Below are positions 11,253 through 31,793 of a stretch of DNA of 32,000 nucleotides, one piece after another. The DNA is from Virgibacillus oceani. Lineage in GTDB: Bacteria; Bacillota; Bacilli; Bacillales; Amphibacillaceae. Made by a program: the position numbers and the translations under genes. Under the pieces are notes generated by a model that was given only the letters and a program-made list of their open reading frames with translations, did no database searches and had not been told where the DNA came from. The stretch lies in NCBI GenBank assembly GCA_041521345.1, contig JBGOHB010000002.1, one strand, 5' to 3'. The stretch's first letter is position 1, and every line of letters starts with the position of its first letter.

Positions 11253-14200
11253 TTACTCACCTGGCACTTCCAATAAAAGCTGCCTGGAAAAGAAATATAA
11301 ATATGCTTCTTTCACCGGCTCTTTCCATATTTGTTCAACGGCTTGCCGGTACAAGTTCAGCTGTGTTTCATACCTTTTCATCAGTTTTCTTTTTGCCTGT
11401 GTGTCCACCTCTTCAGGAATGGCATCCGTTTTATAATCCATGATAATCCAGCCATCTTCTTTTGGAATCAGGCAATCAATAACGCCCTGAATCAGCACCT
11501 GCTCCTCCGTTCCATCTGCCAAGTCAGCATATACTTCATTTGCCGGCAAGGTAAGGCTGAAAGGGACTTCCCGATGTACATTTTCTACTTCTCTCATATA
11601 ACCTGCAATTGGTGTAGCAAAAAAACCTGCTATAGCTGAATAATCAATGATCGACGCTTGTTCCTGCGTTAGTATTTCTTTTGCTGCCAGAAATTCCACA
11701 AATTCTGCAATCTCATCTTCACTTAAAGCTCTGTTCATTGGGATGTGCTGCATTACCGTATGCATTGCTGTACCTTTTTCCGCTGAAGTAATAGTTTTCT
11801 TTTTCTGTATAAAATTAGGCCGTTTTACTATTGGCGCCTTAAATTGCTGGACAAGCTGGTCTGAGCTGTATTCGTCCTTGATTTCCTGCTGTCTTTTTAT
11901 TTCGGTTACCGTTTGTTTCGCCCTCAACGCAGCTGCTTCCTTGAAACCATAAGTAAAGGATAAACGTTGATCTACTGCCTGCTCCAGACTTTCATCAGCT
12001 ACAGAAGCCTTCTCCCAGTTGACAATAGTACGCTTTAGCTCTTCCTTCTTGTCTCCCTCGGCTTCATCTATATTGACAAGCTCACTCCCATGTAAAATAG
12101 TTACATCCCATGTGGATGGATCAAGGTGAATCTCATTTAATGTTGAAATCAGCTCCATTTCTCCACGTAGCAGGTTGTTATCTTCGTGTCTGATAAGGGC
12201 TGGCCCTACCCAATCCAGATAAGTTTTGGATTCCATCCGAAAATGTGCGGGGAGCACCCACTGGGCGTGATCAATCATTCTTTCCCACTTTTTCCGTTTA
12301 TCTTCCATCGAATTGACGTTTCCGACCATAACGAGTTTTTCTTTTGCTCTGGTTAACGCCACATATAAAACCCGCATTTCTTCAGCCAAAAGCTCTCGCA
12401 GTTTTTCCTGTTTTAAAGCATGATAAAAAAGTGTCGGGTACGTGATTCGTTTTACGGGATCGATATATTTGGAAGCAAACCCCATTTCTTTATGGAGTAA
12501 ATACTGCTGATTTAAATCCATTAAATTAAACTGCTTATCCATTGCGCCTAAAATGACCACCGGGAATTCAAGCCCTTTACTTTTGTGAATGGTCATGATT
12601 CTTACGACATCTTCCTGCTCGCTCAGTGCTCTTGCCGCACCAAGATCATCATTATTTTCCTCCATCCGCTCAATGAAGCGTAAGAATCTGAACAGACCGC
12701 GAAATGATGTTTCTTCATATGTTCCTGCCCGGTCATAAAGTGCCCTCAGGTTTGCTTGCCGCTGACGACCGCCAGGCATACCGCCGACAAAGTCGTAGTA
12801 GCCTGTCTCCATATAAATATCCCAGATTAATTCCGATAATGCTCCCTGTCTTGAGGCAAATCGAAATTCCTCCAATTTTTCAAGAAACGCTTTAATTTTG
12901 TCTGAGGTATTATTCCGATTGGTATCTATATAGCTTTTCATAGCTTCATAAAAATAGGATCCTCTTTTCGCCAACCGAATAGCAGCTAATTCCTCTTCAT
13001 TTAAGCCTACAATTGGTGAACGTAAAACGGAAGCCAGCGGAATATCCTGTCTTGGATTATCTATTACTTTGAGAAAACTAATCATCACTTTTACTTCAAT
13101 TGCTTCAAAATAACCAGTGGACAGCTCTGCATAGACAGGAATCCCTTGTTTCTTCAATTCTTCTACGATCACGGGGCCCCAATTGCTCATGGAACGCAGT
13201 AAAATGACGGCATCCCGATACTGGAAGTCCCGCTGTACTCCTGTTGATTTATCCACAACTTGCAGCGGTACTCCGCCCTTTTGTCCGATCCATGTTTTAA
13301 TTTTTTCCGCATAGAAACGAGCTTCCAGCTGAGCTTTTTCTAAATCCTGATAATCCTCTTCATCTTCTGAGACGTCTACATCTTCTTCTGCTTCTCTGTC
13401 AATTATAACGAGTTCGGGATTTGGCTCGGAGTACGGCAGTTCATCATACATTTTATTCCCATAGATTAATTCAGCGTTTTTATCATAATCAATCTCTCCC
13501 AGTTCCGCATCCAAAATTTGCCGAAAAATATAGTTTGTTCCTGTCAGTACCTGCTCCCTGCTGCGAAAATTCCGTGCTAAATCAATCCTGCTGGCCGGGT
13601 TAGTTTCTTCAGCAAAATATCCGTATTTCTGAATAAACAGCTTTGGTTCAGCATGACGAAAGCGGTAAATACTTTGTTTCACATCACCCACCATAAACAT
13701 GTTGCCTGTTCCTGTACGGTCGCTGATCAATGTCAATAAAGTTTCCTGCACCAGGTTGGTATCCTGATATTCATCAATTAATAATTCGCTGAATTTTTCT
13801 TTATAATAATGTGCTACCTTGGAAGGTACCGGTTCAACCGTTGTTGCCGATTCATCCAAAAATAATGATAAACAGTAATGCTCCAAATCAGAAAAGTCCA
13901 CAATGGCTTTTTCTTTTTTCTTTGTTGTAAATCGATCTTTAAAAGTTTTTACCAGCGCTGTCAGCTTTTTAACGACAGGTGCCATTTCCTGCATATCTTC
14001 CACATGACTGGCTAAATTTCGTTTGAACCACCTGTCTTTCATTTTATTCCAGCGTTTTTTATAGCTGTCTCTCAAGTTTTTTAATTTTTCTTTTTTCTTT
14101 TCATCACATTCTATTTTTTTCCCCGATAATCTGCCGAAGCTGCTTGATGACATAAATTCCTGCAAATTATCCCAGTTATGAAAATGGTTTAATGCTTCCT

Positions 14201-14981
14201 TTAGACCAGTAAGATCCTTTTCTATTGCATCCATATAATGAAATGGTCCGTCAGTTTCCTGGGTTAAATTGAAAGCTAGATTCATTTCATCCTGAATCGC
14301 AGCAAATTGACTTTGAACTTCGTTTTTTATAATATCCAGCCAGGACAGCTCCGACTCCTGCCAATCCGCACCTATCTCATAAGCTGTTGCGAGTTCGTCA
14401 AGCCATTCATCCGGCCACGGGTTCTGCATTGCAAAATGATATAATGACAGAATTAATTCTTCTACAGCCGCATCACTCCGGTCATTGGAAAAACGGTCTA
14501 CTACAGCGAAAAATTCATCCTGCTCTATATCCCCTGCGCCATACCATTCCTCAAACAAATCTTCCATTACTTCCTGCTTTAACAGGTCTGCTTCCATTGT
14601 ATTTGCAATCCGGAATGCAGGGTCAATATCCAGTAAATAGGCGTGCTGCTTTACGACATCCAAGCAAAAGGAATGCAAGGTAGAGATCGAAGCACGCTGC
14701 AGAAGAGATAACTGCTTTTTCAAATGGATTGATGACGGATCTGCTGCAACTGCCTTTTCCAAAGCAGCACCAACCCGGTTGCGCATTTCCTGGGCAGCTG
14801 CATTGGTAAAAGTTACGACAAGCAGGGAATCAATATCTACCGGATTTTCTTTATCTAACAGTTTTTGAATAATACGTTCCACGAGCACTGCCGTTTTGCC
14901 GGAACCTGCCGCAGCAGCGACAAGCACATCCTTCCCTGAAGTATAAATAGCTTCTTCCTGTTCTATTGTCCATTTGACCAT
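11253..14981 (-). CDS. addA: ATP-dependent helicase/nuclease subunit A (AddA)
   Basis: 1242 aa. UvrD-type Walker A VAAAAGSGKT and a C-terminal RecB-type nuclease domain. TGATG junction with addB. Confidence 0.97.
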   Translation of the reverse strand: MVKWTIEQEEAIYTSGKDVLVAAAAGSGKTAVLVERIIQKLLDKENPVDIDSLLVVTFTNAAAQEMRNRVGAALEKAVAADPSSIHLKKQLSLLQRASISTLHSFCLDVVKQHAYLLDIDPAFRIANTMEADLLKQEVMEDLFEEWYGAGDIEQDEFFAVVDRFSNDRSDAAVEELILSLYHFAMQNPWPDEWLDELATAYEIGADWQESELSWLDIIKNEVQSQFAAIQDEMNLAFNLTQETDGPFHYMDAIEKDLTGLKEALNHFHNWDNLQEFMSSSSFGRLSGKKIECDEKKKEKLKNLRDSYKKRWNKMKDRWFKRNLASHVEDMQEMAPVVKKLTALVKTFKDRFTTKKKEKAIVDFSDLEHYCLSLFLDESATTVEPVPSKVAHYYKEKFSELLIDEYQDTNLVQETLLTLISDRTGTGNMFMVGDVKQSIYRFRHAEPKLFIQKYGYFAEETNPASRIDLARNFRSREQVLTGTNYIFRQILDAELGEIDYDKNAELIYGNKMYDELPYSEPNPELVIIDREAEEDVDVSEDEEDYQDLEKAQLEARFYAEKIKTWIGQKGGVPLQVVDKSTGVQRDFQYRDAVILLRSMSNWGPVIVEELKKQGIPVYAELSTGYFEAIEVKVMISFLKVIDNPRQDIPLASVLRSPIVGLNEEELAAIRLAKRGSYFYEAMKSYIDTNRNNTSDKIKAFLEKLEEFRFASRQGALSELIWDIYMETGYYDFVGGMPGGRQRQANLRALYDRAGTYEETSFRGLFRFLRFIERMEENNDDLGAARALSEQEDVVRIMTIHKSKGLEFPVVILGAMDKQFNLMDLNQQYLLHKEMGFASKYIDPVKRITYPTLFYHALKQEKLRELLAEEMRVLYVALTRAKEKLVMVGNVNSMEDKRKKWERMIDHAQWVLPAHFRMESKTYLDWVGPALIRHEDNNLLRGEMELISTLNEIHLDPSTWDVTILHGSELVNIDEAEGDKKEELKRTIVNWEKASVADESLEQAVDQRLSFTYGFKEAAALRAKQTVTEIKRQQEIKDEYSSDQLVQQFKAPIVKRPNFIQKKKTITSAEKGTAMHTVMQHIPMNRALSEDEIAEFVEFLAAKEILTQEQASIIDYSAIAGFFATPIAGYMREVENVHREVPFSLTLPANEVYADLADGTEEQVLIQGVIDCLIPKEDGWIIMDYKTDAIPEEVDTQAKRKLMKRYETQLNLYRQAVEQIWKEPVKEAYLYFFSRQLLLEVPGE

Positions 14982-17900
14982 CAGCTTTTCCTCCCTTCAG
15001 TTAATCTTTTTAAAATCTCATCCTCTTTCATATCGGTTAATTTATGATAATTATTGTCATCCAATGATGGATCGAATTGACAGACAGAATGAAACGGACA
15101 AAAAGTACAAGCGACGTTCTGTTTATGTTTAAAGGGATTTAAATGTACGTTTCCCCCTGTTATATCAAGCCCTGCATCGACCATCAGGCCCTGCACATGG
15201 TGCTGCAGCTTTTCAAAGTTTTCCTCATCCGCAATTTTAGAATTATAAAATCCGCCCCCTTTTTTGATCGCTGCCGGCACAATTGGACTGTACCCCTGTT
15301 CCAGGTTGGTATCCATCATTTTCACTGCTTCCTCATCAGACAGCAGCAAACCGTCCATTTTAAACTTTTTAAAAATCTCATTTTCTATTTTTTCTTCACT
15401 TATTCTATCATTGCCGGAGATCATCGGGTTATGGACATGAAAATATAATACGCCTGCAGGAGTCGCTTGCACCCCGAGCCATTTTTCCGACTGGGATAAA
15501 ACAACATCCAGATACGTGAGCATTTGCAAGGCCAAACCGTAATATACTTCCAGCAAATTCAATCCTTTGGAGCTTGATTTGTAATCGATAATCCTTAGCA
15601 AGAGGGAATCTTCGTTTAATGCCTTGTCCACTCGGTCGACACGTCCCCGAAGCACAAGTTCATAGCCATTTGGCAATGCTAAAATATGTGGATCCAATGT
15701 TTGATCTTTCCCGAAACCGAGTTCAAGCCCTACTGGTGAAAACTGGCTTTGTCTTGCCTGTTCACTTAATACATAGGCTGCTCTGGCAATGACTTGCTGC
15801 AGTTTTTGCTGTATATATTTATACCGGTTGGAGCTATGCAAAATCTGATGCTGCAGCACAGGAGCAAGCTGGTGAACAGCTTTTTTCGCATACTGATCTG
15901 TATCCTGTTTCGACAATGCCGCAAAATCCCTGTTCTCCCCTTGGATCCATTCGGTAATTGTTTTTAATGCTTCATGAAATAACTGACCAATATCCGGTGC
16001 ATCCAGTTTATACGTTTTTCGTTCCTCAAGACCAAGACTGTATTTTGCAAAATGCTGATAAGAACAGCGATAGTACGTTTCCAGCCTGGATACACTGGCA
16101 TTGACCTCTTTTGGAGGATATAGTTTTTCCGCTGTTTCTGCTGATAAATCTATTGGTTTATTCTGGTAAAAAAGGCTTTGCAGGATTTTATATGTTGTAC
16201 TGTGTTTTGCATGGTTTTCCACATACCAGTTTAAAACATGCCACCAGATTTCCTTCACCGGATAACCTTTTCTGTATCTTGCAAGCTGGGCGGTCAAGGC
16301 AGATCTTGTTTTCAGTGCTGTGGTGATAAACTGATCGGCCTCAACCAATTCTTCAGGATCCTGCAATAAAATATGGTCACAGCATATTGGGTATAAATCT
16401 TCTATTCGTTTAATAAGCTGGGAAGGCATTTTTGTATTACCTTCTTCATCACTTAAAGGATAGCTGATCCAAAGCTGATCCTTGGCAGCAGTGAAGGCAA
16501 TATACATATAAAACCAGTCATCAAGCAACTGCTGTCTGCTGCTTTCCGCCAGTTTAAGCCCATGTCCTTCGAGAATCACTCGTTCCTCTTCATTAATAAT
16601 ACCGTCAGCCGGTGGTTTCATCGGCCAAATTCCTTCATTTACACCGAGCAGTAGGGCAACTTTGATGCCGCTGATTCGTGAGTGATCAATCGTACCAACA
16701 ATGACCTGATCCATACTTGGCGGAACATGGGCAAATTTCAATGCTTCAAATCCGGCATCCAGTGTGGACCTGAAGCTTGCCAGCGTCATTTTTTCTTCTC
16801 CGGCCATTTCCACCATTTCATCAAACAGCTGAATAATAGCGTCCCATACCTGCTCCTGCTCTCGCCCTTTTTCAATTTCTCCCTGCTCATCATAAAAAGC
16901 CCGCATTGCTTCCAGACGTCCAGGCACTCCAACAGCCTCGAGCAGCATATACGTTATCTCGCAAAACTCCATTACGGTTTTGGCTTTTCGGATATTTTGG
17001 TCAAAATCCCGGAGTGCATCCACGACCTGAGAGCGGTATTTATTAATTCGCTTTTGAGTCTCCATTTCTGCATCCGTCTGACCCTTTTGTTCAAAGCCGC
17101 GGAACCGCTGAAAGACCCATTCTTCTTCACTTAACCATCGTTCCCTGGAAAGAATACCGTATTCCAATACATAATTTTCCAGTTCATCAATGGCATCATT
17201 TGTTAGCGGAAGTTCCTTGTCTGAAGCAGGAATAAATCCTGTCTTCAGCACTCTGAAAATAGCATCATACCGCCAGTTTCCTTCCACAATATCCATAGTA
17301 GAACGAATAAACTCAATCAGGGAGTGATTAATCATCGTACGTTTTTCATCAATAAATACCGGAATATCATAATCTCGAAAAATGGTGGAAATTAAATCGT
17401 TATACGTATTAGCTTCCCTGATAAATAGGGCTATATCCTGATAACGGTAATTTTCATCCCGCACAAGGCGAATGATTTCCTGTGCAGCCCCTTCAACCTC
17501 TGCCCTTGGGTGCACCGCCTCCGCAATCCGAATAGGAACATCTCCTGCGTAACTTGGAGAGGGAATCGTATTAAAGTGCTGCTCCAAATGAGCAAAATAA
17601 GGACGATCTTTAAATCTTCCATCTGCAGGATTCAGATAAATCGTATCTTCTACCGGAACCCCGCTTTCTCCCGCCATCTGCGTTAATTGTTGATAAGTTT
17701 CCGCAGTTTTGTAAAACAAATCCAGTTCGGATGGTGCTTCCTGATCCACTTGATCCAAAGTGAGCGTTACAGTTACACGTTTGCATTTTTTCATCAGTGC
17801 TTCAATAACAAGCAGTTCCTTAGGAGTAAAACTATGAAAACCATCCAAATAGATTTCTGCATCCTCCAGTGCTTGCGAGAGTCCGACCTTTTCTGCCAGC

Positions 17901-18472
17901 AATTCCAACTGATCCTCACTATCAATATAGTTTTCCTGCAAAGCAAAAAGGGATTTCTCATAAATATATACTAAATCTGTCAGTTTATTTAAAAGTGCTA
18001 TCTCTTTAGGATCTTTATGTACAAAACGATCCATTCCTTCCATTTGTGCATAAAGCAGTTCCGGTGTCACATTATAACGTTTGAATTCGGTGATGATGCT
18101 TTCCAGCTGCTGTAAAAATCCCTGTTTCTCCTTTGCCTTTCCGAAAGTAAGCCATTCCCCTGTTTTCTCTTCAATAATTTTTCTAAGCATCATCTGTGTT
18201 CCAACAGAACTGATAAATTGTCTTGTAGCACCGCCTGTTTCCTGCAGCACACGCCAGGCCAGCCTTGAAAAGCTGACAACCTGTGCACGGATGCTTCCTG
18301 TTATATGTTCGTCGCGAAATAACGTGTATTCCTGCTGAAATGTCATTTGATCCGGTACAATATAAAAGATGGCAGAACCTTGCGGGTGCTCAAGCAATTT
18401 TTCTTTTATTTCATCCAATGTTCTTCCGCTTTTTCCGGTTCCGGCTCTGCCAATCAGAAATCGGACTCCCAT
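14981..18472 (-). CDS. addB: ATP-dependent helicase/nuclease subunit B (AddB)
   Basis: ATG at 18472 follows GGAGGAGTCACT. MGVRFLIGRAGTGKS start. C-terminal nuclease domain with Fe-S cysteines (CTFCPFHSVC). Confidence 0.97.
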   Translation of the reverse strand: MGVRFLIGRAGTGKSGRTLDEIKEKLLEHPQGSAIFYIVPDQMTFQQEYTLFRDEHITGSIRAQVVSFSRLAWRVLQETGGATRQFISSVGTQMMLRKIIEEKTGEWLTFGKAKEKQGFLQQLESIITEFKRYNVTPELLYAQMEGMDRFVHKDPKEIALLNKLTDLVYIYEKSLFALQENYIDSEDQLELLAEKVGLSQALEDAEIYLDGFHSFTPKELLVIEALMKKCKRVTVTLTLDQVDQEAPSELDLFYKTAETYQQLTQMAGESGVPVEDTIYLNPADGRFKDRPYFAHLEQHFNTIPSPSYAGDVPIRIAEAVHPRAEVEGAAQEIIRLVRDENYRYQDIALFIREANTYNDLISTIFRDYDIPVFIDEKRTMINHSLIEFIRSTMDIVEGNWRYDAIFRVLKTGFIPASDKELPLTNDAIDELENYVLEYGILSRERWLSEEEWVFQRFRGFEQKGQTDAEMETQKRINKYRSQVVDALRDFDQNIRKAKTVMEFCEITYMLLEAVGVPGRLEAMRAFYDEQGEIEKGREQEQVWDAIIQLFDEMVEMAGEEKMTLASFRSTLDAGFEALKFAHVPPSMDQVIVGTIDHSRISGIKVALLLGVNEGIWPMKPPADGIINEEERVILEGHGLKLAESSRQQLLDDWFYMYIAFTAAKDQLWISYPLSDEEGNTKMPSQLIKRIEDLYPICCDHILLQDPEELVEADQFITTALKTRSALTAQLARYRKGYPVKEIWWHVLNWYVENHAKHSTTYKILQSLFYQNKPIDLSAETAEKLYPPKEVNASVSRLETYYRCSYQHFAKYSLGLEERKTYKLDAPDIGQLFHEALKTITEWIQGENRDFAALSKQDTDQYAKKAVHQLAPVLQHQILHSSNRYKYIQQKLQQVIARAAYVLSEQARQSQFSPVGLELGFGKDQTLDPHILALPNGYELVLRGRVDRVDKALNEDSLLLRIIDYKSSSKGLNLLEVYYGLALQMLTYLDVVLSQSEKWLGVQATPAGVLYFHVHNPMISGNDRISEEKIENEIFKKFKMDGLLLSDEEAVKMMDTNLEQGYSPIVPAAIKKGGGFYNSKIADEENFEKLQHHVQGLMVDAGLDITGGNVHLNPFKHKQNVACTFCPFHSVCQFDPSLDDNNYHKLTDMKEDEILKRLTEGRKS

Positions 18473-18535
18473 AGTGACTCCTCCATTCAATTAAAAAGGC
18501 TGTTTTTTAAAGGATTGAGACTGAAATTTTCCGTC

Positions 18536-18600
18536 CTCGTAATGATTTAGGACTACGAGATATTCTCGTCCCACCGTAAAGATTTGTTGTTTTTCTGCAA
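18536..18600. repeat. short module of the GC-rich repeat family
   Basis: Contains the CTCGTCCCACCG / AGGACTACG / CCTCGT motifs also found in the 42-bp extra segment of copy A (9230-9280). Confidence 0.5.
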
Positions 18601-18627
18601 AACTGATATATTATTATTTTGCTATCA

Positions 18628-18912
18628 GCCGGATACACGTACACTCTTGCGGGAGAAAAGGCATCAGTGATACCCCCGTAGAGCGCGAGGAGTGCTCAAG
18701 CACGAGGTTGGTGACAACCGTCATCGACCAAGACTGCGCCAAATGCTCGCCCATCATAATACCTGTGACGTCATCTACACTAGCACATGCTGTACGTTGG
18801 GAGCTCTCCAGTCGCCGGCGGCAAAGAAGACACGCTGAAAATGGCCAACGGGAGTTTCCAGAGATGCCGATTTGTGCCTGGAGGTAAAAGCGCAGTGTAT
18901 TCGGGCTCCGGT
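18628..18912. repeat. GC-rich mosaic intergenic repeat, copy C
   Basis: 5' and 3' ends are homologous to copy B. The 10-bp terminal helix pairs 18629-18638 with 18895-18904. The interior is homologous to copy A in reverse complement. Confidence 0.75.
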
Positions 18913-19021
18913 CTGAATAGCAACAAACTATATGAACATAACCATTAAAAAGCTTCCATCTTCTATTTTACCAAAGATGGAAGCTTCTCCATAGCTATTT
19001 GCGAACAAAGGCTTAAAGCTA

Positions 19022-19290
19022 GATTAGCGACGTATGGACTGGACTGAGCCGTAGGAGATAAAGGAAACATGCCCCTTCATAGGGGTATGCCGACGTTGGA
19101 CGCGAAGTCCGATTTTAGTCGACCTTCCTTCTACATAGGAGCCATGTTGACTTATCGAAGGATGTTCGGTTAAAAACGCGACGTCCTGTCGCAACACCGA
19201 ACTGACCTGCATCCTGCAGGCCCGAGGTGAAGGACGTCTCGCTAGTCGCTAAGCGTGGAGCGGGACGTGGCTAAACTTGTTGTTTCATTA
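19022..19290. repeat. GC-rich mosaic intergenic repeat, copy D (inverted relative to copy B)
   Basis: The reverse complement of 19071-19128 aligns to 10722-10785. Exact shared words are AACGTCGGCAT and CGACTAAAA, followed by a CCCCT/AGGGG hairpin. It also shares CAGGACGT-GCGTTTTT with copy A. Confidence 0.7.
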
Positions 19291-19316
19291 ACACCTACAT
19301 AAAATTATATACTTTC

Positions 19317-19868
19317 TTATTTCCCCAGTGTAAGACTCGCCTGAGGGAGCGGCCAGTATGTCATACCGACTTTTCCTACAAGCACTTCCTGATCAATAAA
19401 ACCGAATGACCTGCTGTCAAGACTATCCTGCCGGTTGTCACCAAGCACGAATAATTTTCCTTCAGGCACTTGTGTTTCACCTGTCAGCGCTTTTAGCGTG
19501 AAATCCTCTGTAAAAGGGTCGGAACTGCTAGCCATTTTATATGATTCCAGAAATTCCTCTTCAACATATTCACCGTTCACATACAATTGATCGTTCTTAT
19601 ATTCTATTTTGTCTCCCGGTGTTCCAATGACTCGTTTCACGTAATCTTCTTGGTCATTTGCATGAAAAACAACGACATCAAAACGGTCTGCCTCCTGCAG
19701 GTTATAAAGTACTTTATTCACGATTAACAAATTGCCGTCATTCAATGTGGGCTGCATTGATTCTCCGACAACTGAATAATTTGCAAATATGACGCTTCTC
19801 AGCGTAAAAGCAAGAACCAATGCAATGCTTATTGCAATAAGCAACCTAGGGTAGTTTACTTTTTTCAT
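19317..19868 (-). CDS. lepB: signal peptidase I (SipV/SipS-type)
   Basis: N-terminal TM anchor, catalytic Ser box GESMQPTL, Lys box YVKRVIG and GDNRQDSLDSR. Confidence 0.95.
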   Translation of the reverse strand: MKKVNYPRLLIAISIALVLAFTLRSVIFANYSVVGESMQPTLNDGNLLIVNKVLYNLQEADRFDVVVFHANDQEDYVKRVIGTPGDKIEYKNDQLYVNGEYVEEEFLESYKMASSSDPFTEDFTLKALTGETQVPEGKLFVLGDNRQDSLDSRSFGFIDQEVLVGKVGMTYWPLPQASLTLGK

Positions 19869-20368
19869 GATTATCTTCCTCCAGATATCATTCTACCCTT
19901 TTTATTGGCTCTTCAACCCTCTTAAAGCTTGGTTTCATGCCTTGTTAACAATTTTCTACCCAATCTTTTCTCCATATATTTGCCAATCACCTAAAATAAT
20001 AAAATACATAACCTACTGTCTTGTTTCGATTTGGAACGGGTGGAAACTCCATAACATTTGAACTCAATAGGCAAGCTCGCCCTTCACTGCATACATGCTG
20101 CTAAAACTGATGATACAGAAACGTTGAATAAATTTTTGAAAGGTTTTTACTCGTGAAATTATTCTATACTCAATTCGTATCCCATTCATATCAACCAGGA
20201 TTAAACTGAAGTGTTTAATTCTAATCCAAACTGCCTGCTATACCTAGTCAGAACCACGGAACAGCTACTTTAATTTCATTGTTTTTCATTTTTTTATTGT
20301 ATTTTTCCGTTGGTTTTGCATATAATATAGAAACAGAGAACATTTGTTCTTTTTTGGAGGGATGTCGT

Positions 20369-20758
20369 ATGCGGTATCTTCAAGATGAGGATTCTAAAGT
20401 GTCCGTACGTTTTCTTTTTTTATCCATGGCAATGATCGTCATTGAGCAGGATATAAAGCATGTGGAAGCCGGACCATTCAAAATAAAAGAACCGTATCTG
20501 CAGCTATTGAAAAGCATGATGCAGATCGCTGTTAGTGAACGGAAGCAGTTAAGAAAAATCATGTTGCAGAAAAGCATGCATGTAGTAAGACTGCATAAAA
20601 ATGATTCGTTCTCCACTTTTTTACTTATCTGTGATGGTCATGAGGAAAAAAGGAATTTTTTTAATCCGGCAATACGGATGAAAGTGGAGGAAATTTTACA
20701 GGAGCTTATGGATAAGGCTCTGCTATCATCCCAGCAGTATGTTTCTTCAAATACTTGA
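20369..20758 (+). CDS. hypothetical protein, 129 aa (position corresponds to the B. subtilis yhjD/yhzC neighbourhood)
   Basis: ATG at 20369 follows GGAGGGATGTCGT. The track start at 20279 has no RBS. Its 3' end overlaps the comK remnant convergently by 53 nt. Confidence 0.5.
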   Translation: MRYLQDEDSKVSVRFLFLSMAMIVIEQDIKHVEAGPFKIKEPYLQLLKSMMQIAVSERKQLRKIMLQKSMHVVRLHKNDSFSTFLLICDGHEEKRNFFNPAIRMKVEEILQELMDKALLSSQQYVSSNT

Positions 20759-20963
20759 GCCGGTGATCCAGCGTATAGCGAAATTGAGCCGTTCGCTGTA
20801 TTTGATTTTGAATCGAACCATAAGAAACTTGCAGCAACACCCGCTGGCCATCTTTGAAAATAATTTCCGTACCTTTACCCACTTTATTAACATGTTCAAT
20901 ATGGGAATGACCAATCCATGAGCATGAGGGGTTTCTCGGAGATGTAGTCGGAAAGAAGTACAT
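20706..20963 (-). pseudogene. comK: comK 3' fragment (C-terminal half of the competence transcription factor), truncated by prophage insertion
   Basis: FFPTTSPRNPSCSWIGHSHIEHV...LQVSYGSIQNQIQRTAQFRYTLDHRL aligns to B. subtilis ComK LFPTLSSTRPQCGWISHVHVKEF...LPISYNSFENQVYRTAWLRTKFQDRI (second half of the protein). An in-frame stop lies 8 codons upstream of the ATG (20990-20988). Phage genes follow immediately. Confidence 0.8.
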
Positions 20964-21141
20964 GCTAATTATAACAATGTAATAGACTTATTAATAATAT
21001 AAAACACTGATTTAATAGGGTTTTAGGGAGTGTGCTTCCAGTTGAATAAGTCTATTTTTTTATTGAAAGTGTATCACGAGTTGTATCACAGATAAACAAT
21101 AATAAATATAGAGGAGCCTTGAAGGCTCTTTTTCTTTTGTG

Positions 21142-21169
21142 AAAATAAAAAGCCCTCGGTGTGAGGGCT
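21142..21169 (-). terminator. rho-independent terminator ending the accessory operon
   Basis: Stem AGCCCTC / GAGGGCT starts right after the stop codon and is followed on the minus strand by TTTTTATTTT. Confidence 0.8.
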
Positions 21170-21712
21170 TTACATTTGAGTTATAAAAGTAACTATAATT
21201 GCTGATATTCCTATAATAAAAGCCACTTGTCCCCAAAAGTTAGTTCTTTTCATTGACTCTAAATTTTTAACGGAATCATCAATTTTTTGTTCTGACTTTT
21301 CAAGACTAGCTTTCATTTTCTCATTTTCTTCAACAATTTTATTTTCAAGTTTTTCTATTACTGCAATAAAGCGTTCTTCTCTTTCTTTACTTTCTTTTTG
21401 ATAATTTTTTAAAGATTCATTAAAACGTTCTTCACGATTAATCGTTTCTTCCCTAAGCCTTGTTTCACGTTCTCGTGCATCATCCAGTAAATGCTTTTCT
21501 GTTTCTCTTCTATCGGTATCAACTTTTTCCATATATTTTTCTAATATTTTACTGTCATCCATTTTTTCACCGCCGTTATATTGATGGTTACTAGTTGCTG
21601 CTATTTCATTTATAGGTATAGCATGGTTTAAGTGTGATCTTTTACGTTTACCACCTATAACACCGTCAGACTGTCCAGGAAATTCAATGACTTTGCCCTC
21701 AGAAGCATTCAT
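21170..21712 (-). CDS. C-tail-anchored coiled-coil membrane protein, 180 aa, function unknown
   Basis: ATGA start/stop overlap with the upstream gene; RBS GGAGAGGG. A long charged E/K/R heptad-like region ends in a single C-terminal TM segment (FWGQVAFIIGISAIIVTFITQM). Confidence 0.65.
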   Translation of the reverse strand: MNASEGKVIEFPGQSDGVIGGKRKRSHLNHAIPINEIAATSNHQYNGGEKMDDSKILEKYMEKVDTDRRETEKHLLDDARERETRLREETINREERFNESLKNYQKESKEREERFIAVIEKLENKIVEENEKMKASLEKSEQKIDDSVKNLESMKRTNFWGQVAFIIGISAIIVTFITQM

Positions 21713-22350
21713 TCATTTTCCCTCTCCTCTAACTCACTTTCAAGTGTAATCAGATATTCCTTTAAATCAATAGTTGTCGATTCTAAATCAGAAACAATGG
21801 TTCTAAGGTTAGATATATCTTCGAAACTGACAGCCCCTTCATTTAACATTAATGAAAAATAATACAGAATATCAGATATCATTAAAGAAAAATCTTTCGT
21901 GTCCACAGACATTAAAAATTGATCAGAATCATTTCTTAGTAGGTACATATTAAACATGTTTCTATTCTGATTATGCGTAAAATCCACTTTATCAAAACCC
22001 AAAGGATTAACATTGAATTGTTTGGCTCTCTTAAAATCCAATGAATAATTAAACAATAAATAATTCAAAAAAGTATTTGCTTTTTCGTTTTTAAATATTA
22101 TATCGTCATAGGAATTGTCTTTAATATTTCCTCCCAATGCAAACCAAAATAGAAACATCGAAGCCTCTATTCCCATTATTTTAGGTAAAAATTCATCTCT
22201 CAAATTATAATATGACTTTGGCCATTCAGGACCTTCTATGCAACGATCAATAGTGTTTATTAATAGATGCTTATTAAATTCGTCTGATATGTAATCAATA
22301 AATGAATTGTAACCTTCTATTACTTGGTTGTAATCTAAATCTATTTCCAA
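21709..22350 (-). CDS. hypothetical protein, 213 aa, no recognisable motif
   Basis: Preferred start is TTG at 22350, 7 nt after AAGGAGGG. The track ATG at 22461 has no RBS and overlaps the YolD-like gene. Very AT-rich. Translationally coupled to the downstream gene. Confidence 0.6.
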   Translation of the reverse strand: MEIDLDYNQVIEGYNSFIDYISDEFNKHLLINTIDRCIEGPEWPKSYYNLRDEFLPKIMGIEASMFLFWFALGGNIKDNSYDDIIFKNEKANTFLNYLLFNYSLDFKRAKQFNVNPLGFDKVDFTHNQNRNMFNMYLLRNDSDQFLMSVDTKDFSLMISDILYYFSLMLNEGAVSFEDISNLRTIVSDLESTTIDLKEYLITLESELEERENE

Positions 22351-22441
22351 TATTTCTCCCTCCTTATATTGAATACATTCTACAAATAAGGTCTCTTTTC
22401 CTGCTTTTTTGCAAAATAGATATAACAATTGTAAATTTAAT

Positions 22442-22756
22442 TTAATCCACCATAACATCAATTACATCATTAATGCCAACCTTTGTTCCGTCATCAAAAA
22501 TAATACAGTCATCAGCAACAATACTTTTTAATTTACCTCTCAACATATGGTATTCATAATTGCTGAAAAACTTTACTTCAACAGTAAGACTATCGTGAAT
22601 AGCAAGCTGCAGCTTCATCACATTTTCCTCTATCTGCTGTTCATCCTGGATTGGCTTTTCTTTTTTATCATCTTCTGCCCACATTTCTTTAATCATCTGT
22701 ACATGCTCAGGCAACATGAGCGTAGTCCATTTTATGCTACCCCTGTCATTTGTCAT
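22442..22756 (-). CDS. YolD-like protein
   Basis: RGSIKWTTLMLPEHVQMIKEMW matches the YolD-family signature (R-G-x-I-K-W...MLPEH). RBS AGGAGG. ATGA overlap with the upstream gene. Confidence 0.75.
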   Translation of the reverse strand: MTNDRGSIKWTTLMLPEHVQMIKEMWAEDDKKEKPIQDEQQIEENVMKLQLAIHDSLTVEVKFFSNYEYHMLRGKLKSIVADDCIIFDDGTKVGINDVIDVMVD

Positions 22757-22965
22757 GCTGTAAACCTCCTGCTTGCTTTTTGTAACGACAATATGTTTTC
22801 CATTTTAAAGGTGCGTACCTTCTTCCGATAATAACAATAAGCTAAAATGCTGTTTTCATGCTTATCCAGTACCCGGATAAACCGCTGTGTCAAGTTATTA
22901 TCGTCATCAATATAAATCATTTCCAACACAGTTTTACTACCGACGGCACGGTTTATTAAGTCCAT
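22753..22965 (-). CDS. small WYL-like domain protein, 70 aa
   Basis: VLEMIYIDDDNNLTQRFIRVLDKHENSILAYCYYRKKVRTFKMENILSL follows the WYL-domain pattern (Y-x-d-x-g-x-x-T-x-R-x-I...ayC...R-x-F...I). RBS GAGGTGA. Confidence 0.5.
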   Translation of the reverse strand: MDLINRAVGSKTVLEMIYIDDDNNLTQRFIRVLDKHENSILAYCYYRKKVRTFKMENILSLQKASRRFTA

Positions 22966-22981
22966 AAGATCACCTCAAAAG

Positions 22982-23035
22982 GAAACGTTTGTTCTAATAT
23001 GATACCATAAAAACGAGAACGTGTGTACTGTTGTT
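22982..23035 (-). promoter_or_regulatory. putative SOS-regulated promoter with two LexA (Cheo) boxes
   Basis: On the minus strand: -35 TACACA, 17-nt spacer, extended -10 TGgTATCAT. Box 1 is AGAACAAACGTTTC (22995-22982), just downstream of -10. Box 2 is AGTACACACGTTCT (23029-23016), overlapping -35, with one mismatch to GAAC-N4-GTTC. Confidence 0.55.
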
Positions 23036-23040
23036 TATAG

Positions 23041-23068
23041 TTGAATATTTTGCTTTTTAATATATAAT
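23041..23068 (+). promoter_or_regulatory. putative sigma-A promoter for the small Cys-rich ORF (divergent from the SOS promoter)
   Basis: TTGAAT, 16-nt spacer, TATAAT. Confidence 0.4.
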
Positions 23069-23159
23069 AAAAAATAAAAACCAAAATAACAGAAATCAAT
23101 AGAAAAGAATAAAAATATGGTTTCCAAATTATTTTTACCAAAAAATTGGAGGTATTTTT

Positions 23160-23392: not shown

Positions 23393-24322
23393 TTATACAA
23401 ATGTCCCTGAATTTAATTGACGTTGCATTTCCCTGACCACCATAGATGGCCTACTTAACACACCATCTACGGTAGTACCCAAGTAAGTCTGTAACAACCT
23501 AATTGTCTGCGGTCCGAGTAAACCATCCACAGTAGCTCCAATTAACTTCTGCAACGCACGAATCACCATACTGCCGCCGCTGTTACTAAAACGTACAGTA
23601 TTGCCGTACATAGCTTCAGTGACAGAGTTTCTACGTTGGTTACTTATGATATCGTCAACAGTTGTACCAAGCGCAACCTGTAACGCTCCTGTTGTAGCAC
23701 CTCCCCACTTGCCATCAACTGTGAGGTTTGCACCTTTTGACTTGCTTGGAGGTTTAGCCTTTCCACCGCCAGAGCCGCCAGACAGCCCCAAATAAACCGC
23801 AATCCCTTTCGCATGTGCCTCAGCAATCTTTCTCAGGTTGCTATCACTCTTTAAAAAATCTGCATCCTGTGAATTGTCGATAAAGCCGTTTTCCGTTAGT
23901 ACTGCCGGCATACTGGACTGTCTCAATACTGCAAAGTTAGCCTGTTTTTTACCACGGTTGTTTCTAAACAGCGGAGCCAATTCTGCATGTAATGCATCTT
24001 GCAATTTTCCAGCTTCGGAATTTCTGCTTAATTGATTATAAATATAATCCTCATACCCATAGGCAGATCCGTTAAAAGCATTAATGTGGATAGATACAAA
24101 GATATCTGCTCCCCAGCTGTTTGCATCATTTGTACGATCTGTTAGCGATGGGAAACTGTCATCATTACGAGACATTCTCACAGATACACCACTATAATCA
24201 TTCTGCAAATAGTTCCTTGTATAACGTGCGATTTTTAGCACCACATCTTTTTCCTTTAATCCATTACCCGCAGCACCCGGATCACTGCCACCATGACCTG
24301 GATCTAAATATACTTTAGACAT
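23393..24322 (-). CDS. N-acetylmuramoyl-L-alanine amidase endolysin (Amidase_3 plus peptidoglycan-binding repeats)
   Basis: MSKVYLDPGHGGSDPGA...SIHINA matches the amidase_3 core. The C-terminus has three VDG-x-x-G-x-x-T...LQ repeats (PG_binding_1-like). Confidence 0.95.
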   Translation of the reverse strand: MSKVYLDPGHGGSDPGAAGNGLKEKDVVLKIARYTRNYLQNDYSGVSVRMSRNDDSFPSLTDRTNDANSWGADIFVSIHINAFNGSAYGYEDYIYNQLSRNSEAGKLQDALHAELAPLFRNNRGKKQANFAVLRQSSMPAVLTENGFIDNSQDADFLKSDSNLRKIAEAHAKGIAVYLGLSGGSGGGKAKPPSKSKGANLTVDGKWGGATTGALQVALGTTVDDIISNQRRNSVTEAMYGNTVRFSNSGGSMVIRALQKLIGATVDGLLGPQTIRLLQTYLGTTVDGVLSRPSMVVREMQRQLNSGTFV

Positions 24323-24573
24323 TATTTAGCCTCCTTTTCTCCATTTAAATACTGCTGAGCCCTTTTAGCTTCAGCCGTCCAGTTATTGTTTTTCCAGTGA
24401 TTCCAAATCTCTGTACCCGCCAATGCAATAACAGATATACCTGCTACAATAGTCTCGTTGTCAAAAGGAAGTAGTTCATATCCAAACATTAGAGCTCCAG
24501 CATTAGCAAATACAACTGCCATAGCTACCAGACGGATCCATTTGTTATCAATTTTTTTAAGTTGTTTTCTCAT
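24322..24573 (-). CDS. holin (SPP1/XhlB-type)
   Basis: 83 aa with two TM segments and the HWKNNNWT motif typical of this holin family, followed by a charged tail. TAATG junction with the amidase gene. Confidence 0.8.
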   Translation of the reverse strand: MRKQLKKIDNKWIRLVAMAVVFANAGALMFGYELLPFDNETIVAGISVIALAGTEIWNHWKNNNWTAEAKRAQQYLNGEKEAK

Positions 24574-24878
24574 CTCTGATCACCCCCTTTATCTAAATTA
24601 TCCAATCGCTTATGAGCTTGTTTGGACGATTCCTCAACCCTAGTTAAACGTTCGCCTAATGCACCTATTCGCTTTTCGTTCGCCCTTAGATCAATCCGGA
24701 TATCATCAACACCTTTACGGATATAATCAAGACCAGCCTTTACTTCTGCACTTTCTTTTGTATCGTTTTTGGTGGATGTGCTTTTTTTAGATTGATAGGT
24801 TAAATAAGCGATAAGAACACCAATAACGGCAATAAAAAAAGATCCAATTGAAATCAATATTCCTAGTTCGACACTCAT
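24570..24878 (-). CDS. lysis-cassette membrane protein (N-terminal TM plus coiled coil), in the XhlA position
   Basis: 102 aa. TM segment GILISIGSFFIAVIGVLIAYL, then a coiled coil. 4-nt overlap with the holin start. Confidence 0.6.
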   Translation of the reverse strand: MSVELGILISIGSFFIAVIGVLIAYLTYQSKKSTSTKNDTKESAEVKAGLDYIRKGVDDIRIDLRANEKRIGALGERLTRVEESSKQAHKRLDNLDKGGDQR

Positions 24879-24968: not shown

Positions 24969-25487
24969 CTACAATACTTTTATTACTTTAGCTTTACCTG
25001 TAAACAAGTACTCTACTTTTTTATTATCTAACACATGTCCTCCCCAGTATTTATTGGCATTCTCCCTAACTTTTGATAGAGGAATCGGATTTCCTTCAAC
25101 AAAAGTTGCGTCACACTTAAACACTACCCCAGTTAATGACAATTCAAGAAGTTGCACTTTATTATGCTCAAAATGCATTTTCCAGTCTTTCATACTTTCA
25201 TAATCTCCAACCCAAAGAGAAGTAAATCTTGACGGTAAGTTTTCATTAATGTTTTTTCTCTCCTCTTCAAAAATTGTCTCTCTAGCATAGTGCCAGTAAA
25301 AAGTAACTGCGCTTATTAGGGCTTGTTTATTATTTATAACATTCGGTACTTGGTTTTCATATGAAGACATAAATGGATTGATTGTTTTGCCTATGTTTAA
25401 AATATCACCCTCAGATAATAAGTTATATGGATTTTGATTACTTGTTGAATTACAATGATAAAAAATTTCATTTACTACTTCTTTCAT
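24969..25487 (-). CDS. hypothetical protein, 172 aa (accessory gene between the tail-fibre and lysis modules)
   Basis: ATG at 25487 follows AGGAGGGGATTTTT. AT-rich. Has its own terminator. Confidence 0.6.
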   Translation of the reverse strand: MKEVVNEIFYHCNSTSNQNPYNLLSEGDILNIGKTINPFMSSYENQVPNVINNKQALISAVTFYWHYARETIFEEERKNINENLPSRFTSLWVGDYESMKDWKMHFEHNKVQLLELSLTGVVFKCDATFVEGNPIPLSKVRENANKYWGGHVLDNKKVEYLFTGKAKVIKVL

Positions 25488-25562
25488 AAAAATCCCCTCC
25501 TGCCTAATTATTTCTACAGGGTGGGGCAAAAGTCCTTCTTTTTTCACACATAAAAATAACGC

Positions 25563-25982
25563 CTATTCAGCGTTAACCTCTTCTATAAATATTTCTTCTG
25601 CCATTTCTTCCAGTCTTTCCATAGCCTTGTTTTCTTCATATTCTTTATCACTTAATTCAAAATTCCCATTGAAACTGACAGTCCGATTATCATTCCTTGT
25701 AGTGTACGATATTTGCACACTCACTACTTCATCATCTGAGTATCTTGTATTAATACTTCTAACCTCAAAATTCAAATTAGGGACTTCATCAAGCAAATGC
25801 TGTTTTGCCATTTGTTCCAAGGTGGCAATTGATTCATTTCCTTCATATTCATCTGCAGACAAGTTAAAATTTCCATTTCCATTAACAGATCGGCTTTCAG
25901 TATTTGCTTTATACGATACCTGAACATTGTCTATTTGGCTTTCTTTGTATCTGGTGTTGATGCTTCTGACTTCGAATTGCAT
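25563..25982 (-). CDS. hypothetical protein, 139 aa, made of two tandem ~68-aa repeats
   Basis: ATG at 25982 follows AAAGGAGG plus 9 nt. Both halves begin FEVRSINTRY and align throughout. Confidence 0.65.
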   Translation of the reverse strand: MQFEVRSINTRYKESQIDNVQVSYKANTESRSVNGNGNFNLSADEYEGNESIATLEQMAKQHLLDEVPNLNFEVRSINTRYSDDEVVSVQISYTTRNDNRTVSFNGNFELSDKEYEENKAMERLEEMAEEIFIEEVNAE

Positions 25983-26125
25983 TTTTCATTTTCCTCCTTT
26001 AGTTTTTTAATTTCAGCTTTCAACCTTTCGTTCTCAGCCGATAAAATAGCGATACGTCTTTTTGCATTCGACATATCGCCTGACCATTCTATATTTAATT
26101 TATTGATGATTCGGTTTACATCCAT
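25931..26125 (-). CDS. small coiled-coil protein, 64 aa
   Basis: ATG at 26125 follows AGGGAGGTGGAAATA, with a TAATG junction to the tail-fibre stop. The 3' end overlaps the next gene by 52 nt. Confidence 0.45.
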   Translation of the reverse strand: MDVNRIINKLNIEWSGDMSNAKRRIAILSAENERLKAEIKKLKEENEKCNSKSEASTPDTKKAK

Positions 26126-29100
26126 TATTTCCACCTCCCTATAGCAGTCGCTGTTGTCGTCCATGTAGAAGTAGAGGGATTGTATGAACTAAAAGCAATT
26201 AGATTAACGCCTGTGGAGTTTGGTTCATTTGCAATGTCCCCCCATCTTCCCACGGAAGCCACGGAAACAGATACAGAAATAGGAAACCCACTTTGAAAGG
26301 AAGCAGGAAAAGACCATGTAACAGGGTTAGACGTCCTCGATAGAGAGCCGCTTGATTCATCTGTCATCAACTCTATATGATTGGCCCAGCATATTTGCAA
26401 TCCACTTGAATAACGAATGTACTCACCATCAGCATTAGATCCTTCATCTACAATAACATCTGCTCTGCCCTCTTCTGTAAAAAAAGCGGAGGCTCTTAAC
26501 GCTGCATGCTCCCACGGGTTGGCTCCAGAAAAAAAGTTAAACAAATTTTGCGGAGCGAAAAAGTTAGCCTCATTTTCTGAAACAGCAATTCTAAATAGAT
26601 TGCCAAATTCATAGCTGCCTGTGGCGTTATTAAATACAGGGTTTTTCAGCGTTAGTCCTTGTCCAAGAGACTCTTGGTCGTCATAATAACTAGCATCTTC
26701 TACTCCTATAACTACACTGTCTGTTGTTATTTCTCCTGATGACACTTTACCACTAAACGTAGCATCCTTCCCAAACGTATGCCCTAGGAAATTTATCTGA
26801 TCAGCGTCAAAAGTAAATGAGCCTGCTTCCTGCGTAAAGATGGAACGCACATCCCCGTCATCGACTTTACCGCTAATCTCTTCAGACATGACCGTAAACT
26901 GCGCACTGTGATCTTCTACGATGTCGTTAATCGTGTCGACATACGTGCTGTCAGCTTTTAAGTCGATTCTGCCTGCCACTTGTTCAAATTCGGATGATGC
27001 GTACTCGTAGACGTCAGTTATTTCCGCTTGCGTATCCTCCGGTGCTGGTGTCCAGTCGGTGGATTTGTTGCCTTTTTCGAGTTGTACATTAGTAAATAGA
27101 ACTCCGTTACCGTTAGTATTTCCAGATTTGCCTGCATAAAATAAAAGACGGTTTGTTTCATCATTGCTAGTTGTAAAAGTTCGCATGATCTTTCCATCTC
27201 TAATTTCAAGGTCTCCGACACTTCCATTCGAATCATTACTTCCTCGCCTTTGAAGAACAGTAATTTCTGTTACATCTCCATCTGTTACTTCCACATCGGC
27301 TGATACGGTGTACACTGTATCACTTTCCAATGTTTTCGTTAGGTGCATTGAGGCGTAGTTATAACTAGTGTCTCTAGGCGTTAGTTCATATTTAGAGCTG
27401 TCTTCAATTAAATTCCGCCCACCAATCTCCAAGTTATCCAATTCCGCACTGACGTCCGAAACATCAATTACAAGACCGTCTGCGGTTTGCTCTACGGTTG
27501 ATACCCTATTACTAAGATCTCCTGTAACACTATTAAAATCGGTCTGTTCTACCTTACTTGTAATATCAGATTCGGTTTGAGTAATTCTAGTTTCATGGTC
27601 TGTTAGGTCTGTAATTACATTATCCATATCAGTACTATATTCAGTTTTGGTAACCCTATCCTCAATTAAATCAGCATGCTGTAACCTTGCTGTCTCTAAA
27701 TCTGATATTTCGGTACCATGGTCACTTACAGTCTGGGTGAGACTGGATACATTACCTTCTATCTCTTCAACATTTACAGATAAGGCAGATAAATCATCGC
27801 TAACAGTAGTTACATCACCTTCTAAGGTCTCAACAACTGACCGCTCGGCTTTTGCTTCAACTTCTCCGGCAACTACGGACAATTCTGCTGATAAACTACT
27901 TACGTCACCCGATACGGTATCCAAATCATCTTGATTCGCTTTTAGGCTTATTGCAGTAGCGTTTGCACTTATATCCGTTTGCGCTTGACTTACAGTATCG
28001 TCCAGATTAGATAAGTCGGTAATAGCTACGTTTAAATTACCTTCCACAGTATCTAAGTCCGTGACAACATTCGTAATACGCCCGTCATGTGCATCCAGCT
28101 CGTCTGCATTATCAGCTACTGCCTGTTGCAGATTATCAGCAGTATCTGATAAATCATTAACAGTAGCATCAATAGCTTGTACAACGTCACTGTCAGCTTT
28201 TAACTGCAATTGACCGTCAACGTACTCAACGCCTACTTTATCCGCTAAATCGTCGCCGATCTCCTGCATTTTTGCGTTATAGGCTTCCCAATCTACAGCA
28301 TTTTCGTCTGTATAATCTTTAGCATTACGTTCTGCCTCATCTGCCCTGTCGTCGGCATGACCTTTAGCGTTATCCTCGGCACGATTAGCCTTATCAGTTG
28401 CGTCTTGCCCTGCATCCTCCCTGACAAATTCGTCTTGGTCTTCGGCATGCTTTTTAGCATTACTCTCCGCCTGCTCGGATTTCTGAGAAGCATCTCTTTT
28501 TGCCTCTTCATCATAAACAATGTCTTGATCATCGGCATGGCGTTTAGCTTCCTGTTCAGCTTGATATGCCTCTTCACCTGCGTATTCTTTAGATTCGTCA
28601 AGGATTTCAAGTGCCTGCTCAATACGTGCTCTTTCTTCCTCGGATAAGCGTTCATCCCCATATTCCATGGCCTCACGCATCCGTTCAACAGCTAACCGGG
28701 CAGGTAATTCCTGCTGCTCAATGCCTTTCAAATCGTCAAATTCACGCTTAATTTTGTTGATTAAAGTTGGCTGCGCTTCTCCGAAAACAGCCTCCAAGAT
28801 AAACCCACCGGGCTCATGGATTTCTTTAAACTCGGTGATGGGAGCGTTCATTGTAATGTTCCACTTTTTATTAAAGACCTGTACCACATCACCTAAACGA
28901 AAATCAGTCTCATATTCAAATGGTGTACTCATGGCAAAATCATTATTGCGGTTAATGCTAGGTGTCAGTATTTGAGCTTCCAAATAAAACGTAGTCTCAA
29001 ACTCTCTCATCCTACGTTGACCACGTTCAATTAACAGCTGCTCGTATTCTTCAGGTGGAAGTTCTTCTTCTGTTTCCTCGTCCGTTTCGGAAACGTCCCG

Positions 29101-29892: not shown

Positions 29893-29893
29893 G

Positions 29894-31303: not shown

Positions 31304-31323
31304 TTGATCAACTCCTTTCAATT

Positions 31324-31347
31324 AAAAAAGCACCTCGTTTGAGATGC
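31324..31347 (-). terminator. rho-independent terminator (copy 2 of an exact repeat)
   Basis: Identical 24-mer to 24945-24968, again directly after a stop codon. Confidence 0.7.
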
Positions 31348-31533: not shown

Positions 31534-31537
31534 GTTT

Positions 31538-31738: not shown

Positions 31739-31793
31739 CTTTATCACTCCTCTGTCTAATTAATTCGACAGGAAATGATAGATTCCTTTAAAT

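Follow-up and report, generated by a model that had tools for sequence, protein, structure and literature searches.

A probable prophage junction at invariant codons of the competence gene comK in Virgibacillus oceani

Prophage disruption of comK, the gene of the master regulator of competence, is the textbook case of active lysogeny. Does an insertion of this kind also occur in Virgibacillus oceani, where a ComK-like open reading frame (ORF) of only 85 codons lies directly beside phage genes? The question is raised by a stretch of 32,000 nucleotides from contig JBGOHB010000002.1 (assembly GCA_041521345.1), hereafter the window, in which an earlier note made from the letters alone had read a comK split by a prophage. 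Our best full explanation, to which we give a probability of roughly 80%, is that the window carries the right-hand attachment junction (attR) of a temperate siphovirus-like prophage, integrated site-specifically into the comK coding sequence at a core of 14 bp. The split structure was observed directly: a C-terminal fragment of comK (comK-C'), a break in homology, the attachment (att) core, arm repeats and phage late genes lie along the window. The type of integrase, the presence of the N-terminal half of comK (N') in this genome, the loss of ComK and the capacity of the prophage for excision are predictions from sequence.

The 85-aa ORF, which starts with MYFFPTTSPRNPSCSWIGHSHIEHV and contains the internal stretch SYGSIQNQIQRTAQFRY, matched the Pfam family ComK (PF06338, E=2e-22) over profile positions 82-151/152; only the C-terminal half of ComK is therefore present. 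It aligned end to end with residues 88-173 of the 173-aa ComKs of Virgibacillus, Lentibacillus and relatives (62-67% identity), which bears out its description in the earlier note as the second half of ComK, and its identity rises to 83-84% against the corresponding part of the intact 172-aa ComKs of closer relatives, at the metagenomic loci L023 and L098. A stop codon had also been reported in frame 8 codons 5' of the ATG, and it is indeed seen in the translation '*VYYIVIISMYFFPT'. The ATG itself is the native internal Met88 of ComK, and no ribosome-binding site was found before it. The fragment is free of frameshifts and stops, retains in the alignment every residue that is invariant in 18 other ComKs, and has a ratio of non-synonymous to synonymous substitution rates (Ka/Ks) of 0.19 against L023. 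A length of ~172 aa is the norm in this clade, nearly all of the best 120 of 412 ComK relatives having 156-228 aa.

The point at which comK ends in the window was placed by comparison with three prophage-free loci, all metagenomic (L023, L098 and L099). comK is intact and encodes 172 aa in all three, and the gene order is AMP-binding enzyme, comK, yhjD (convergent, with a 53-bp overlap), VTT/DedA, sipV and addB. In each case the BLASTN match begins exactly where the Met88 codon does (L023 3586, L098 7540 and L099 3704, all equivalent to window 20963) and runs leftwards from there through comK-C', yhjD, sipV and addB at 79-91% identity, while the sequence upstream of Met88 in the three loci had no BLASTN match anywhere in the window. 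As expected of a prophage that splits comK, the homology ends at a discrete point and phage genes lie beyond it. The break at 20963 agrees with the start of ComK homology proposed earlier (about 20955-20963), and the comparison with prophage-free relatives, which the note had recommended, thus came out in its favour. The 53-bp overlap of yhjD and comK is found equally in L023 and L098, whose products match Pfam YhjD and whose yhjD-region DNA is 79-82% identical; by this comparison the overlap is the native arrangement.

Beyond the break, phage late genes occupy at least 11 kb, from ~21170 to the edge of the window, all on the minus strand, uninterrupted and tightly packed. Matches to Amidase_3, an SPP1-type holin, a YolD-like protein and PHROG structural families show that the genes said to abut the comK fragment are real phage genes.

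Eight att sites could be anchored: the bacterial site (attB) in L023, the sites of unintegrated elements (attP) in L071 and L073, the left junctions (attL) in L003 and L070, and attR in the window, L001 and L002. The only block common to all eight is ATGTAYTTYTTTCC (window 20950-20963), which is 14 bp long and occurs once in the window. As in lambda-type systems, an identical core is therefore found in attB, attP, attL and attR. Its position falls within the interval of about 20950-20975 in which the core had been predicted, and it is shared with the attP of related elements. In the ComK alignment, residues G87 to T93 are invariant, and the core codes for MYFFP at residues 88-92; because these codons are invariant, a single integration module can suit hosts that share only ~55-65% identity in ComK. 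Immediately 5' of the ATG, the attR arm of the window departs from attB, and it has patchy similarity to the arms of L002 and L074.

The arms carry a second shared signature. Two copies of GTGATAC are present in the window (21071-21077 and 21083-21089), and the motif GTGATAC-N5-RTGATAC stands at -127 in five attR or attP arms (window, L001, L002, L071 and L073), as well as in a sixth, L074, where it was identified by reading. The same motif stands at +59 in four attL or attP arms, just inside the 3' end of the integrase gene. Arm repeats at a fixed distance are thus found on both the P and the P' arm, again as in lambda-type systems, and we presume that they are binding sites of the arm-binding domain of the integrase. 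The attR side can be written as the pattern GTGATAC-N5-RTGATAC-N(100-114)-ATGTAYTTYTTYCC. Both the core and the arm repeats of the window match functional-looking attP sites perfectly.

The same break point was found beside other elements, at L001/L072, L002 (Paraliobacillus salinarum) and L074 (P. ryukyuensis). On contig JACEFA010000003.1 of P. salinarum, the N' (235348-235016) and C' (194634-194353) fragments have the same orientation and are 40.4 kb apart. N' is followed by the integrase, a cI-like S24 repressor, cro and replication genes, with the lysis module at the other end, where C' adjoins tail, holin and amidase genes; the N' fragment, truncated to 110 aa, directly abuts the integrase. 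The window, in which the lysis end likewise stands beside C', has the polarity of this prophage, and tblastx detected patchy likeness between the two over window positions 24969..32000.

At the attL junctions L003 and L070, an N' fragment abuts a tyrosine integrase of 361-363 aa with Arm-DNA-bind_4, Phage_int_SAM and Phage_integrase domains; the two enzymes are 88% identical. In the N-terminal ComK fragments P0126 and P0127/P0142, divergence sets in after ...SSGMYFFP. The unintegrated attP sites L071 and L073, obtained by a pattern scan of JGI metagenomes, have the order arm repeat, core, arm repeat, integrase. Their integrases are 69-70% identical to that of L003, and L071 also carries a cI-like repressor. 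Besides the arm-binding N-terminal domain, the catalytic R...HxxR...H...Y residues are recognizable in the integrases of L003, L070, L071 and L073, in the motifs ARIGEL, HDFRHSHA, LGH and TTYDxYxHL, that is, at the loci of relatives only. The integrase of L003 also has relatives of 88% and 72% identity at the ends of two IMG/VR prophages of ~38 kb, and the comK-site integrases of relatives are 69-88% identical to one another. The orthologous site with its related integrases extends over V. oceani (where the enzyme itself is predicted), P. salinarum, P. ryukyuensis and metagenome contigs of ENA, JGI and Logan. IMG/VR scans with a ComK alignment, with a single integrase and with the attL pattern gave nothing useful, and a profile search for N' fragments returned many, none of them from V. 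oceani; short N' matches with '...STRLNSSH...' tails are assembly chimeras and were left out.

Not all of these elements are phages. The one beside comK-C' at L001 (1-4817, ENA ERZ27252336 k141_571055) and L072 encodes FtsK/SpoIIIE and Replic_Relax proteins and resembles, by gene content, an integrative and conjugative element (ICE) or an integrative and mobilizable element (IME). Yet its attR arm and core are those seen in the phages. Because an ICE-like element has a phage-type arm and core, the comparison suggests that the integration module moves between element types. Two further fragments deserve mention. In P0154, a ComK N' fragment is fused in frame to the read-through of an L073-type attP arm (MYFFPLERLVSGG...), and it therefore represents an attL made by the L073 element type in a different host. 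The break in the N' fragment P0156 comes one residue further on, at 'MYFIPT'; its tail is related, and it hints at a wider family of comK-site elements. Three database entries named 'competence protein ComK', MFA1818984.1 (85 aa), WP_246366927.1 (110 aa) and WP_113868632.1 (93 aa), are split halves annotated as complete; the two N' entries (WP_246366927.1 and WP_113868632.1) bear phage-encoded tails.

The locus of P. ryukyuensis (L074, QNRI01000005.1, 6360-10300) has a different structure. Downstream of a full-length comK of 175 aa come, in order, a 3.1-kb remnant, an attR arm and a duplicate comK-C', which is 99% identical and begins exactly at the core ATG (6606 versus 10001). The remnant lacks an integrase and encodes a Peptidase_M15_4 protein and small ORFs; 96 nt of the comK 3' end occur three times. 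The appearance of the locus is that of a scar: comK would have been restored, and the right end of the prophage and the old C' copy retained. Because a C' fragment and an attR arm coexist here with an intact comK, these two features alone are no proof of comK loss.

We propose that integration proceeds by exchange between attP and attB within the 14-bp identity, which would be carried out by a lambda-type tyrosine integrase with an N-terminal arm-binding domain. The integrase gene would adjoin attL and, like comK codons 1-87, would lie outside the window, past its right edge. The products of the exchange would be an N' of ~93 ComK residues with a short phage-encoded tail and an untranslated C' remnant. 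The split takes the conserved C-terminal half away from the N' product, and the lysogen should lack the competence regulator because the insertion separates the two halves of ComK. Integrase together with an excisionase would restore comK without a scar, because the core and the reading frame are identical in attP and attB. Most likely, a highly conserved target would give the element a broad host range, and blocked transformation would protect it from deletion by recombination, in line with a published proposal on mobile elements in competence genes (PMC4774983, PMC12378983).

Several points weigh against this interpretation of the window. The window ends inside the prophage; the integrase of the element, its attL and the 5' half of comK would lie beyond, as judged by analogy with P. 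salinarum and L003. A scan of genome contigs with the attL pattern (TGTGATAC at +59) returned 17 chance matches and none from Bacillaceae, the pattern being one base too strict: the P. salinarum attL reads CGTGATAC where TGTGATAC was demanded. L074 illustrates that a full-length comK may be followed, 3 kb downstream, by a C' fragment with an attR arm, and a second copy of comK elsewhere in the genome is possible. Finally, the natural competence of V. oceani, its need for ComK and the excision of the prophage are assumptions. How much do these points change? It is quite improbable that comK was never lost, with a full-length copy at the other end of the element or elsewhere and the 85-aa ORF as a redundant leftover. 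The duplicate of L074 is a precedent for this, and, going by the title of PMC3128618, some Bacillus species have two ComK paralogues. However, the far end of the P. salinarum element, the one complete large prophage inspected, has only the truncated N' beside the integrase, L003 is alike, and the sequence cluster of the window fragment holds no full-length ComK from V. oceani, its full-length members being metagenomic only. An arrangement like that of L074 also seems unlikely in the window because 11 kb of intact phage follows. As for an independent short ComK-like paralogue or a phage-borne gene, there is almost no chance of either, even though NCBI annotates the 85-aa ORF as a complete 'competence protein ComK' and several database relatives are similarly short (83-93 aa). 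Each short relative inspected adjoins an element junction, and the ORF with its downstream genes is colinear with the 3' half of intact comK loci at 79-85% DNA identity. This colinearity, the end of homology at the att core and the missing ribosome-binding site led us to reject both readings; the ~172-aa norm of the clade also speaks against them.

Two other explanations accept the split and differ in its fate. A fossil junction, with a defective prophage or with a far end that was lost or rearranged, so that comK would be permanently inactivated, is unlikely. In its favour, the far end is outside our view, such elements do decay, as the 3.1-kb integrase-less remnant that P. ryukyuensis keeps at the site demonstrates, and the nearby host DNA has lost ~490 bp in the DedA/VTT gene. 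By contrast, over the 11 kb in view the late genes are all intact and closely spaced, the core and arm repeats of attR are perfect matches to functional-looking attP sites, and comK-C' has no frameshift or stop. Active lysogeny, that is, reversible non-lytic excision under competence or stress conditions that restores comK in a subpopulation and is followed by re-integration, as in phi10403S, appears improbable. An exact restoration of comK would be expected from the identity of core and frame in attP and attB, the C' fragment is undecayed, with all invariant residues and a Ka/Ks of 0.19, the site has been used repeatedly across genera, and Listeria provides a precedent (PMC7397523). Yet the sequence bears no sign that excision is regulated and non-lytic, a recent insertion would leave the fragment just as intact, the recombinase and the site are unrelated to those of the Listeria system (PMC3556126), and the ICE-like nature of the L001 element fits a shared integration module better than a host-adapted switch. 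Regulated excision of this prophage is speculation, and we retain the integrated prophage with its attR in comK as the preferred explanation.

The earlier note had drawn an analogy with the comK prophages of Listeria, A118 and phi10403S. As regards the outcome the analogy held: those are also temperate siphoviruses of ~40 kb in comK, which separate N' and C' halves, carry the lysogeny module on the comK-N' side and restore the gene by precise excision (PMC3556126, PMC7397523). As regards enzyme and site it did not. The enzyme of A118 is a large serine recombinase; its crossover is 2 bp long (GG), and arm sites are absent (PMC3556126). The relatives of the window element combine a 14-bp core and arm repeats with a tyrosine integrase that has an arm-binding domain; judged from the integrases of these relatives, the A118-type serine recombinase and 2-bp crossover do not apply here. 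The position of attB within comK differs as well: the present break is at Met88, that of Listeria at GGA, the codon of Gly63, which precedes YVFPT (equivalent to MYFFPT) by 26 codons. The Listeria break was placed from one intact and one split comK (L075/L076; OR846724.1, OR846733.1). These two records, labelled 'Listeria phage LM 4-11-1' and 'UNVERIFIED_ORG', are Listeria chromosomal contigs. On these comparisons, what the Listeria and halophile systems have converged on is the gene; site and enzyme differ. The hosts differ too, Listeria being an intracellular pathogen and the hosts described here free-living halophilic spore-formers, and a switch function has been shown in Listeria only.

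The nearest sequenced phages are the Bacillus phages BtCS33, phIS3501, BceA1 and vB_BthS-HD29phi, which have the same integrase architecture, with ~40% identity over the full length. As in lambda-type phages of Bacillota, the integrase gene of the comK-site elements adjoins and faces attP, with a cI-like S24 repressor upstream. The four Bacillus phages differ in that the comK core was not found beside their integrase genes; they therefore integrate elsewhere, and phages of the BtCS33/phIS3501 type were rejected as comK integrators. Compared with them, the comK-specific integrases form a tighter group, given their 69-88% mutual identity. Staphylococcus phage phiSP15-1 (L077, MK075001.1, 53-1174) was likewise rejected as a comK insertion, since comK is full length in this record and the att repeat lies ~0.5 kb downstream. 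The host comK is annotated there as 'competence transcription factor', and the phage integrates next to comK, not inside it.

Insertions into other competence genes (comYC, comFA, comM, comGA and ssbB; PMC4774983, PMC12378983) resemble the present case in having related integrases at a conserved site across species and genera, and in that the same target has been struck convergently by unrelated recombinases. For comK, both surveys name Listeria only, their Bacillus cereus-group cases being in comFA, whereas the hosts here are Virgibacillus, Paraliobacillus and uncultured relatives. The elements skin in sigK, SPbeta in spsM and vfbin in spoVFB are also phage-derived, interrupt a gene with a regulatory or developmental role in a spore-former and restore it on site-specific excision (PMC4191935, PMC6957869); they differ in that their excision is part of the developmental programme of the terminal mother cell, whereas the present element gives no indication of developmental control, and in that skin and SPbeta depend on serine recombinases. 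Full-text literature searches found no report of comK-inserted elements outside Listeria, which a 2020 paper and a 2025 review give as the only comK case (PMC7029219, PMC12378983). The class of mobile elements inserted in competence genes is thus established. What is new, and supported by the sequence comparisons, is a predicted att system of the tyrosine-integrase type in halophilic Bacillaceae: it takes the invariant codons for MYFFP in comK as its target, and it is found in phages as well as in at least one ICE-like element.

The features of the window are collected in Table 1; its protein accessions run from MFA1818974 to MFA1818995. In the prophage, the genes next to the att arm, which may be accessory (moron) genes, gave a Pfam YolD match (E=2e-17), a weak XhlA match and PHROG matches, and have a low G+C content of 0.27-0.34. 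The 250-aa protein among them has no family match, and the YolD-like protein has no adjacent Y-family polymerase. The lysis module was recognized by Amidase_3 (E=2e-51), Holin_SPP1 (E=4e-16) and phrog_1863, and the 391-aa protein matches PHROG virion-structural families. A DUF2441 protein of 192 aa (24969-25547, minus strand) lies between the tail-fibre genes and the holin, a position typical of a phage accessory gene. Terminator-like sites numbered 5, against 0.4 expected. A megablast search of deposited phages with the window prophage gave no match, an IMG/VR scan with the amidase gave 44 prophage loci, none with pieces of comK, and a scan with the 391-aa structural protein found only relatives ~50% identical.

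On the host side, the flank (11253..19868) is syntenic with L098, L099, L001, L002 and L074. The B. subtilis-like neighbourhood of addBA and a sipV-like gene that had been described is present, and the order comK, yhjD, VTT, sipV, addB recurs in relatives. The DedA/VTT gene between yhjD and sipV is mostly deleted in the window, where ~494 bp of L098 (8423-8917) are replaced by 22 bp (20061-20083) and a 3' remnant is left. Between sipV and addB, a Bacillaceae-1 small RNA (RF01690, 79 bits, E=3e-13) was detected at 19154-19220 on the plus strand, within a stretch of ~320 bp (19000-19318) that has no counterpart in L098 and L099.

Table 1. Positions of host, junction and prophage features in the window
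Feature	Position	Strand	Description
addA	11253-14981	-	host flank
addB	14981-18490	-	host flank
sipV-like S26 signal peptidase	19317-19868	-	host flank
yhjD-like host gene	20279..20758	+	convergent with comK, overlaps comK 3' end by 53 bp
comK-C'	20706..20963	-	codons 88-172 and stop of chromosomal comK; NCBI 'competence protein ComK', MFA1818984.1
att core ATGTACTTCTTTCC	20950..20963	-	encodes M-Y-F-F-P; identity segment that must contain the strand exchange
Phage-derived non-coding attR arm	20964..21169	-	no homology to comK 5' half
Arm-type repeat TGTGATAC-AACTC-GTGATAC	21071..21090	-	starts exactly 127 nt from core ATG
Two terminator-like hairpins	21110-21132; 21149-21171	bidirectional; -	predicted to end last phage gene before att arm
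att-proximal genes, possibly accessory	21170..23141	-	180-aa coiled-coil/membrane protein, 250-aa protein, YolD-like 104-aa protein, 70-aa and 61-aa ORFs
Lysis module	23393..24878	-	N-acetylmuramoyl-L-alanine amidase 309 aa, SPP1-type holin 83 aa, 102-aa phage protein
Further late genes	24969..32000	-	DUF2441 protein, small ORFs, 1255-aa tail fibre-like protein, 391-aa virion structural protein, others; runs off right edge

What does this locus mean for the family? One practical consequence is that the public 'ComK' entries of 85, 93 and 110 aa are fragments of split genes and should not be taken for short paralogues. Another is that a defined att system, with a 14-bp core, arm repeats, integrases 69-88% identical to one another and a culturable host, is now offered for testing. 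More generally, unrelated recombinases, tyrosine and serine, converge on comK at different codons in different families of Bacillota, a convergence that strengthens the idea of a benefit to mobile elements from silencing the competence regulator, or from riding on it. A further idea, which we regard as improbable, is that tyrosine-integrase phages and ICE-like elements evolved, independently of the serine-integrase phages of Listeria, to use the most conserved codons of comK in halophilic spore-forming Bacillaceae, and that reversible excision in stationary phase or under stress gates the K-state in some of these hosts. If such gating were true, it would constitute a second, mechanistically unrelated active lysogeny at comK.

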